The notes beneath the pieces were generated by a model. The model had not been told where the DNA came from, did not search any database, and saw only the letters and a list, made by a program, of their open reading frames with translations. The position numbers and the translations under genes are program-made. From a virus (Duplodnaviria > Caudoviricetes), in IMG/VR virus record IMGVR_UViG_3300043427_003985, positions 1 to 35,002 of that record: 35,002 nt of DNA; one strand, 5' to 3'. This document shows, one piece after another, positions 29,954 through 31,764 of this stretch (positions are counted from its first letter, which is position 1; every line of letters begins with the position of its first letter).

Positions 29954-30613
29954 CTAGTGTTTGGAGTTCTTTTTTCTATTTCTTGCAGATTGACGCATTT
30001 TTTCTATGGTTTCTGGAGAATATTTTCTTCCTTCACAACCGTTAGATTTTCCTTTTTTGGAAGAACTTATTTTATCTTTAGTTTCTTCACTATGAGATTT
30101 ACCTTTCATATGACTTGATTTGCCAACTTTAGCATCTCTCATTTTTTGTTTTGACTGTTCAGTATGCTTTCTACCCACCCAATATGTATTACCTTTATGA
30201 GTATCACCAATCTTATTTCTTGCTTCTTGTGATTGTGTTCTACCTTTATTTTTTTCTCCTATCTTATTCTTTACTTCTTCGGGTCTAGGTCTTCCTTTTA
30301 GAGCATTACTTCTCTTCAGTTTTGTTTCTTCTGTTTGCAAAACACCAGAAGAACCATCACCACCATCAGTTCTATTATGAAGAATACCTGTCCCTAAATC
30401 TTTTCTACCAAATATAGCAATCATATATTTTTCGTGATTAAATGCATCTCCTTCACTTAAGTTTTGCTTGAGAAGTATTATTTTACTCTTATCTCTAGGA
30501 GGTCTTATATCATTCTTTGATTTCTTATATACTCGGTCTCCCTTACCTTTACCAATATAATAGGGAGTTTTATCCTCACGCAAATATGCGTAAGTGTAAA
30601 AAATGTTATTCAT
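29954..30613 (-). CDS. Free-standing homing endonuclease-like protein (GIY-YIG-like N-terminus + NUMOD3 repeats)
   Basis: YTYAYLRED.TPYYIGKGKG.R...E..MI..FGR...G.L.N.TDGG; repeated H(S/T)EE(T/S)K.K(I/M)S..KG units. Confidence 0.8.
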   Translation of the reverse strand: MNNIFYTYAYLREDKTPYYIGKGKGDRVYKKSKNDIRPPRDKSKIILLKQNLSEGDAFNHEKYMIAIFGRKDLGTGILHNRTDGGDGSSGVLQTEETKLKRSNALKGRPRPEEVKNKIGEKNKGRTQSQEARNKIGDTHKGNTYWVGRKHTEQSKQKMRDAKVGKSSHMKGKSHSEETKDKISSSKKGKSNGCEGRKYSPETIEKMRQSARNRKKNSKH

Positions 30614-30635
30614 ACTACTCTAACGGTGACATTAA

Positions 30636-30643
30636 TATTTATA
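30636..30643 (-). promoter_or_regulatory. Late promoter TATAAATA for the endonuclease gene
   Basis: Exact consensus 22 nt upstream of ATG 30613. Confidence 0.75.
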
Positions 30644-30644
30644 C

Positions 30645-30672
30645 AAAAAATGGAAGGTTTCCCTTCCATTTT
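30645..30672 (-). terminator. Intrinsic terminator downstream of psbD
   Basis: AAAATGGAAGG-GAAA-CCTTCCATTTTTT: GNRA-loop hairpin plus U tract. Confidence 0.8.
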
Positions 30673-30699
30673 ACCTAATGTGTCACCGTTAGGCAACTC

Positions 30700-30707
30700 T
30701 ATTTATA
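30700..30707 (-). promoter_or_regulatory. Late promoter TATAAATA overlapping the psbD stop codon
   Basis: CTA TAA ATA gives an exact consensus, with only about 50 nt before the terminator. Confidence 0.55.
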
Positions 30708-31764
30708 GGGCATTCCCTCTTGGGAGAACTTCATCTGGAAAGACAAAGTTTTCTCCGGGTTGGTCAATAGGAGCCATCCAGGCACGAATTCCTTCATTAA
30801 GAAGTATGTTCTTTGTTACGAACGTCTCAAATTCTGGATCGGAAGCAGCACGAATTTCTTGTGATACAAAGTCATAAGCACGAAGGTTAAATGCTAATCC
30901 AACAATACCAATAGATGCAACCCAAAGACCCATTACCGGAACGAACAACATAAAGAAATGCAACCAACGCTTGTTACTAAAAGCAATACCAAAGATTTGA
31001 GACCAAAATCTATTGGCAGTCACCATAGAATAAGTTTCTTCTTCTTGAGTAGGTTCAAATCCTTTAAACGTGTTTGCCGCAGAACCATCTTCATAAAGTG
31101 TATTTTCCACAGTAGCACCATGAATCGCACACAATAAAGCACCACCAAGAATACCCGCTACGCCCATCATATGAAACGGATTTAGCGTATAGTTATGAAA
31201 TCCTTGTATAAACAGCAGGAACCTGAAGATAGCAGCAACACCAAATGAAGGTGCAAAGAACCAACTAGATTGTCCCAGTGGATACATCAGAAACACAGAA
31301 ACAAATACTGCAATTGGACCAGAGAATGCAATTGCGTTGTAAGGACGGATACCAACCAAACGGGCAATCTCAAACTGGCGAAGCATAAATCCTATGAGAG
31401 CAAAGGCTCCGTGGAGCGCCACAAAAGTCCAGAGTCCCCCAAGTTGGAACCACCTGATAATATCCCCTTGAGACTCAGGACCCCAAAGTAGAAGAAGAGA
31501 ATGACCCATAGAATCTGCAGGCGACGACACAGCCGCTGTGAGAAAATTAGCGCCTTCAAGGTAACTAGACGCCAACCCGTGGGTGTACCAGCTTGTAACA
31601 AACGTTGTGCCAGTAAGCCACCCACCAAGGGCAAGATAAGCAGTGGGAAAAAGTAGTAATCCAGACCAACCCACAAATACAAAGCGATCTCGTTTAAGCC
31701 AGTCATCCAAGACATCGAACCATCCTCGCTGTGAAATAGGTTGTGAAAGTGTTGAAGAAGTCAT
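30703..31764 (-). CDS. psbD: Photosystem II D2 protein
   Basis: [21 protein letters not shown] ... [17 protein letters not shown]. Confidence 0.99.

Follow-up and report, generated by a model that had tools for sequence, protein, structure and literature searches.

Does the inverted repeat between psbD and a homing-endonuclease-like gene act as a hairpin in cis, as a separate small RNA in trans or as a DNA operator? The window, i.e. the whole stretch of 35,002 nucleotides that was analysed, appears from its gene content and relatives to be a fragment of a T4-like cyanophage. On its minus strand, psbD (30703..31764; an ORF of 353 aa; Pfam Photo_RC, E 6.7e-72) codes for the D2 protein of photosystem II, and the gene downstream of it is a free-standing ORF of 219 aa (29954..30613, minus strand; start codon ATG at 30613) with a GIY-YIG-like N-terminus and three NUMOD3 repeats. 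Matches to Pfam NUMOD3 (E 8.6e-20) and PHROG 314 'homing endonuclease' (E 9e-16) identify this ORF as homing-endonuclease-like; the Pfam search of it did not match a GIY-YIG domain, and its match to a PDB GIY-YIG protein is weak (E 0.83). The window also carries an intron-split psbA and several nuclease genes. psbA is interrupted by two group I introns, of which one contains an HNH-like ORF, and carries a PhotoRC-II RNA, a TATAAATA box overlaps the psbA exon end, and two tandem EndoVII-type genes (Pfam) follow psbA (coordinates listed jointly for these features: 32791-33092, 33683-33948, 34842-34933, 34476-34483 and 31816-32633).

Between psbD and the NUMOD3 gene lies a cassette of approximately 100 bases that reads, on the minus strand, late-promoter box, self-folding arm, terminator, second late box and 17-nt complementary leader, and every element of the layout given in the preliminary description is present at its place. 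The first box, P1 (TATAAATA, T4-type; 30700..30707), overlaps the psbD stop codon, and the second, P2 (likewise TATAAATA; 30636..30643), is abutted by the U-tract of the terminator; both were found by motif scan. Because the TATAAATA late box occupies positions -13..-6 (PMC1524935), transcripts are predicted to start at G30694 from P1 and at G30630 from P2; the form of the late box described for cyanophages is NATAAATA (PMC2984593). Based on P1, the terminator and conservation, we predict a small RNA of about 50 nt (30645..30694, minus strand) consisting of a 5' hairpin and a terminator. The 5' hairpin (30673..30694, minus strand; arm 30681-30692) has a GCCUAA/UUAGGU stem, a self-fold that was reproduced by computed folding, and a loop complementary to the mRNA 5' end. 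The terminator-like element (30645..30672, minus strand), which came from a repeat search, is an 11-bp hairpin with a GAAA loop (30647-30672) and a U6 tract; a simple terminator scan did not flag this hairpin. The leader (30614..30630, minus strand) begins with a variable address at +1..+7 and continues with UUAGAGUAG, which includes a weak SD-like AGAG/GAG motif. The perfect 12-bp inverted repeat formed by 30681-30692 and 30620-30631 was confirmed by the repeat search. An architecture scan of the rest of the window found no second cassette of the psbD/nuclease layout.

The boxes alone are not beyond chance, with nine of the TATAAATA type in the window against 5.1 +/- 2.2 expected. The region folds with a z-score of -6.1 relative to 200 shuffles and the plus strand with one of -6.6, and we rejected the z-score as evidence on the strand given that both strands are alike. 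It is by its conservation, seen in sequence comparisons, that the feature is non-random, and not by its boxes or folding energy. A protein-based search gave 66 viral loci, 20 of which have the same layout ahead of the homologue; when P2 and the leader motif were scanned for, an ORF followed the motif in 16 loci, 15 of which carry the cassette as judged by eye. A third scan fixed only P1, the arm's own stem and P2 and left the leader free; it returned 123 loci (103 distinct), and an estimated ~370 stored stretches match the strict pattern. An uninterrupted arm:leader stem of at least 8 bp, mostly 13-14 bp, is present in 97 of the 103 distinct loci, and the mean duplex energy is -22.1 kcal/mol for cognate versus -9.1 kcal/mol for non-cognate pairs. 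These 97 cassettes have 27 different leader starts, and 115 pooled cassettes have 32.

Covariation between the arms, which the preliminary description had proposed as a check, is present: among 43 non-redundant cassettes, left after removal of 10 rows that had decayed or lacked the stem and clustering at 90%, 98.8% of leader positions +1..+10 are paired versus 56.5% with shuffled partners (maximum 64.9% in 1000 shuffles). This shuffle makes no correction for descent, and the counts are not independent because the cassettes are related. Each of these ten positions uses two to four types of Watson-Crick pairs. The promoter-terminator-promoter spacing is also conserved, the second box following the first start site by 52-66 nt; the spacer folds at -6 kcal/mol or better in 97/97 cassettes and has a T-run of at least 4 in 72/97. 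At P2, TA precedes TAAATA in 92/97 and T|purine occupies -1/+1 in 90/97, and 90/97 leaders contain GAG. At the level of sequence, then, the presumed regulatory cassette is real, conserved and covarying.

The genes behind the cassette are diverse. In 21 representative downstream ORFs, Pfam finds GIY-YIG (4), NUMOD3 without GIY-YIG (5), HNH_3, Endonuclease_7, OrfB_IS605 and a weak unrelated match (1 each) and nothing in the remaining 8. The same address can stand ahead of unrelated ORFs, and ORFs that resemble each other have several addresses; given that addresses and ORF types are not tied, cassette and ORF recombine. One cassette (L260:3-674, minus strand) lies ahead of a TnpB-type gene (HTH_OrfB_IS605, OrfB_IS605), likely an RNA-guided nuclease under phage late control. 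Three loci (L312, L228, L230) hold orphan units of P1, arm and terminator from which the matching leader or nuclease gene is gone, and such units could act on genes with the same address elsewhere.

The predicted P1 RNA of about 50 nt is computed to fold into a 6-bp hairpin followed by the terminator at -21.0 kcal/mol. The preliminary description had the pairing extend across nearly the whole leader up to the base before AUG; the P1 RNA is computed to pair with leader positions +1..+14, with one bulged A and a binding gain of -14.4 kcal/mol, in a duplex that covers the AGAG/GAG motif. It stops 3 nt short of the AUG, and pairing beyond this point, as far as the base before AUG, depends on bases found only on psbD read-through RNA. 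In computed folds most of the P2 leader is accessible when free (0.75 unpaired), and read-through RNAs mask it (0.24 unpaired from P1 and 0.08 from psbD). On the arm, the bases opposite leader positions +1..+6 are open (mean 0.77 unpaired in 97 cassettes) and those opposite +10..+13 closed (0.06).

Combining the sequence and folding data, we suggest that a trans-acting RNA of ~50 nt from the upstream late promoter probably pairs with the 5' end of the nuclease mRNA and represses its translation. Both boxes would act as gp55-type late promoters, the 30645-30672 hairpin would terminate the P1 RNA, and the loop of this RNA would pair with the free mRNA 5' end, followed by strand displacement, in the geometry of IS10 RNA-OUT/RNA-IN. 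The arm hairpin would open in the process, a duplex of 13-14 bp would come to cover the ribosome-binding region, and translation would be repressed in trans. As a second layer, the same arm would mask the leader in cis on any read-through RNA, whether from psbD or from P1, and as a third layer the terminator would cut read-through. Late in infection, the nuclease would then likely be made in a small or short burst, damped as the RNA accumulates with genome copy number. The timing logic counts against this trans-acting RNA, as both promoters are late; our best guess is that a late RNA braking a late mRNA serves as a threshold or copy-number brake. 'Antitoxin-like' would describe such an RNA by analogy only.

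Alternatively, the cassette could be a lock in cis of the T4 type, in which the arm masks the RBS on read-through RNA only and the terminator lowers read-through, P2 is the source of late mRNA that can be translated, and P1 is present incidentally or makes a short RNA without effect. Such locks are established for I-TevI, I-TevII, I-TevIII, segB and Aeh1 mobE (PMC2988022), and the masked leader on read-through RNA (0.08-0.24 unpaired versus 0.75 when free) is what they would lead one to expect. Cis masking alone would also work behind a same-strand gene, as found for 65 of the 80 cassettes with enough flank (10 of 12 'antisense' orientation calls look like shadow frames and were left out of the count). 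Moreover, of 72 distinct psbD ends, 24 have a TAAATA close to the stop codon, and almost none of these belongs to a cassette of this kind, so that in the sequences compared boxes of this sort often follow genes, but without the fixed distance to an arm. Near-terminator boxes of this kind were also seen at psbD 3' ends (e.g. L505, L508 and L519) and in the window at 32658-32700, where TAAATA lies just before or after terminator hairpins; from a box just before a hairpin, a late transcript would start inside the 5' stem and could escape termination.

Four results bear on the choice between the lock in cis and a separate RNA. The first is P1 itself. A pattern scan without P1 gave 120 loci (116 distinct), 33 of them complementary and 83 other matches, and the exact TAAATA five bases before a purine is found in 32/33 of the complementary cassettes versus 1/83 of the non-complementary ones. 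The 5-nt spacer of P1 is fixed in length and variable in sequence, and the two bases preceding the box vary as well; in just 34/88 cases the TAA ends a long gene, and we therefore rejected P1 as a mere stop codon. The arm's own upstream late promoter, as originally described, is in this way supported by a box conserved independently of psbD. A promoter that feeds a terminator 50 nt on would have no use in a lock that acts only in cis.

Second, the pairing ends where the P1 RNA is predicted to start. On the leader side of 97 cassettes, pairing is 0.97-1.00 at +1..+9 and falls to 0.71 at -1, 0.26 at -2 and 0.10 at -4, and the stem begins at -1/+1 in 90/97 cassettes versus 2/19 single-promoter hairpins, a control that is small and noisy and includes chance matches. 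On the arm side, beyond the bulged A, the first base of the P1 RNA covaries (A-U 19, G-C 11 and G-U 5 of 39), position -1 is paired via two near-invariant bases in 36/39, and Watson-Crick pairs at -2 number 0/39. The pairing is bounded by the start sites predicted for both promoters. Third, the arm has a self-hairpin that would compete with masking in cis. Counting this stem in pattern-selected cassettes is circular, as it was part of the pattern; sets selected without regard to it have it in 20/22 rows, one of the misses being a mis-anchored duplicate, and where stems diverge (L006, B23, S-SRM01) their own 3' strand and the leader change along. Fourth, in 2/80 cases with enough flank (L013, L194) a complete cassette and its upstream gene are clearly arranged head-to-head, and for this reason no sense read-through can supply the arm there; a terminator lies just before P1 in 6/80. 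In these head-to-head and terminator-preceded cassettes, the sequence shows no evident source of the arm other than P1. A lock acting only in cis leaves unexplained the exact P1 in 32/33, the end of pairing at the P1 start, the self-hairpin and the intact head-to-head copies. In total, these sequence-based results favor a separate RNA over a cis hairpin alone, and we regard the latter as unlikely. The RNA-seq runs are uninformative either way (word share at most 0.08): the four aligned runs contain psbD of other organisms and leave 30604-30667 uncovered.

If a separate RNA is made, it might instead stabilise or activate the nuclease mRNA, whose 5' end it would protect against host RNases, given that the duplex would cap the extreme 5' end and that antisense protection from RNase E has been reported in cyanophage infection (PMC3113571). 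Against this, the duplex covers the AGAG/GAG motif and stops 3 nt before the AUG, and the mostly open free leader (0.75) holds no inhibitory fold to be relieved. From this geometry we infer repression rather than stabilisation, and find the latter quite improbable. It is more doubtful still that P1 transcription itself is the regulator, with polymerase terminating 1-2 bases before P2 and occluding it and the pairing acting only in cis: the U-tract abutting P2 and the tight spacing of 52-66 nt would suit occlusion, which requires neither an exposed loop matching the mRNA 5' end nor covariation at the first base of the P1 RNA. Finally, that the repeat is an operator or cruciform bound by the nuclease for autorepression, as I-TevI binds an operator over its late promoter (PMC2988022), or that the RNA is a guide for the nuclease, is hardly credible in spite of the perfect 12-bp repeat at the psbD locus, because the mixing of addresses and ORFs argues against a protein-specific operator or guide, with the same address ahead of unrelated ORFs, different addresses ahead of related ones and families as different as GIY-YIG, HNH_3, EndoVII and OrfB_IS605, because G-U pairs are retained at leader +10..+12 (12-38%), and because the variable segment matches the gene's own leader; the DNA operator put forward in the preliminary description is accordingly disfavored.

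The separate RNA that we favor shares features with several known systems. RBS-sequestering hairpins with a nested late promoter have been described for I-TevI, I-TevII, I-TevIII, segB and Aeh1 mobE (PMC2988022) and for marine fractured-gene endonucleases (PMC2677866). As in the T-even hairpins, the cassette has a late promoter between complementary arms ahead of a homing endonuclease, with a late transcript that lacks the 5' arm and, by computed folding in our case, a long read-through RNA that masks the RBS. What sets it apart is that a further conserved late promoter precedes the arm, that a terminator separates the two arms and that the arm folds into a hairpin of its own. The 5' arm of the T-even hairpins is supplied only by upstream early or middle transcripts, whereas here it has its own box (32/33) and a terminator-like spacer (97/97). 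The leaders in the accessible text of Dassa et al. (PMC2677866) are simpler hairpins with other motifs and no terminator or second promoter, and the leader motifs differ, so that we rejected the Dassa 2009 motifs as the same element.

In IS10, the hairpin loop of RNA-OUT starts pairing with the unstructured mRNA 5' end and blocks the ribosome site, and altered initiating bases give orthogonal RNA-OUT/RNA-IN pairs (PMC4737173). Similarly, the loop of the predicted cassette RNA is complementary to the predicted free 5' end of a selfish gene's mRNA. RNA-OUT is read from the strand opposite its target and is fully complementary to it, whereas the cassette RNA would be made upstream on the strand of its target and driven by a phage late promoter; being a separate and imperfect copy, it has to covary, and there are about 30 natural addresses. 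The cassette would thus work like RNA-OUT and keep the T4 hairpin, and fail one defining feature of each, because it has its own promoter and terminator and lies on the same strand as its target. CfrI of cyanophage S-PM2, ~225 nt and antisense to psbA and an endonuclease gene (PMC2984593, PMC12197685), is likewise a cyanophage non-coding RNA at a photosystem gene/homing endonuclease junction. The cassette layout, however, was not found in S-PM2. In those type I toxin-antitoxin systems whose small RNA is encoded beside rather than opposite its target, this RNA represses a harmful gene by pairing with the leader; the target here is a nuclease of a lytic phage. Rfam gave no covariance-model match over 30611-30710 at E up to 5 and none at gathering score in 20 related loci. 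A literature search found no description of such a cassette RNA, though subscription papers and unseen supplements could hold one; those of a survey of 10,000 viral RNAs (PMC10690425) may contain it as an unannotated motif.

Further layouts were seen in related sequences. In a second type (50 loci, e.g. L072, L077 and L082, plus L583-L706), an opposite-strand late box lies within the opening codons of a nuclease-like gene and faces the gene's own promoter; the predicted product is an antisense RNA that has two hairpins and an anti-SD loop. TTAGAGTAG is found on the non-coding strand in 90/104 distinct second-type copies chosen without it, and the same 9-mer closes a CURA/UUAG helix in both cassette types, which could reflect shared ancestry or a shared protein. 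The UUAGAGUAG motif is also common to the psbD-locus type and the second type. Loop sequences recurring in both types are UUGGCG / CGCCAA, the former also the kissing loop of plasmid R1 CopT, GACGGCAAUC and GACUGCAAUC with their complements. In a third layout (L015, L019, L029, L441 and, in S-SRM01, L468), an anti-leader within a longer structured element before the late promoter pairs from +6 to the AUG of GIY-YIG-like genes.

Over the 800 nt that begin at the psbD stop, the window is 96-100% identical to three related loci (L002, L003, L008), whereas the last 200 nt of psbD are only 66-70% identical to them. Because identity jumps at the psbD stop, P1 is the left edge of the mobile unit, and as far as sequence identity can tell this shows that the cassette travels with the nuclease gene between alleles of the target locus. 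In the 3' part of psbD (~30790-30860, minus strand), all four alleles that neighbour this nuclease family (the window, L002, L005 and L006) alter a D2 motif that is near-invariant in 79/80 close psbD relatives; this would fit a putative cleavage site in psbD with immune alleles carried along.

Among cultured phages, S-SRM01 has six distinct cassettes and B23 three, and each arm binds its own leader best (in S-SRM01, -18 to -25 versus -4 to -14 kcal/mol). The TAAATA boxes of the S-SRM01 cassettes are at 17955, 48435, 51249, 55961, 62408 and 192423. Orthogonality as a selected trait was set aside, as chance can account for six different addresses when about 30 are available. In a blastn search with two cassettes, S-SRM01 was the sole match over most of the length. 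No cassette was found in the genomes of Syn9, S-PM2 and P-SSM2, which we take to be the phages with transcriptome data, nor, by the strict pattern only, in ACG-2014f.

Beyond the T4 fold-back hairpin, the cassette would add a second layer of control, likely an RNA of its own of 50 bases. A portable small-RNA cassette for GIY-YIG, HNH, EndoVII and TnpB-type genes would illustrate how phages can live with numerous selfish nucleases, and by what means nuclease genes keep control after landing in any orientation. The cassettes offer about 30 natural, compact pairs of riboregulator loop and 5' end, and the model is directly testable in cultured S-SRM01 and B23. More tentatively, and with a possibility in mind rather than an expectation, we speculate that T4-like cyanophages of freshwater have a set of same-strand antisense RNAs coded by address. 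Each selfish nuclease would have its own RNA, and the RNAs of one genome (six in S-SRM01) would be mutually orthogonal; in trans they would serve as copy-number brakes and also silence a nuclease of the same address from a co-infecting phage, with UUAGAGUAG marking a common protein partner. If true, this would amount to RNA-based immunity among homing elements.
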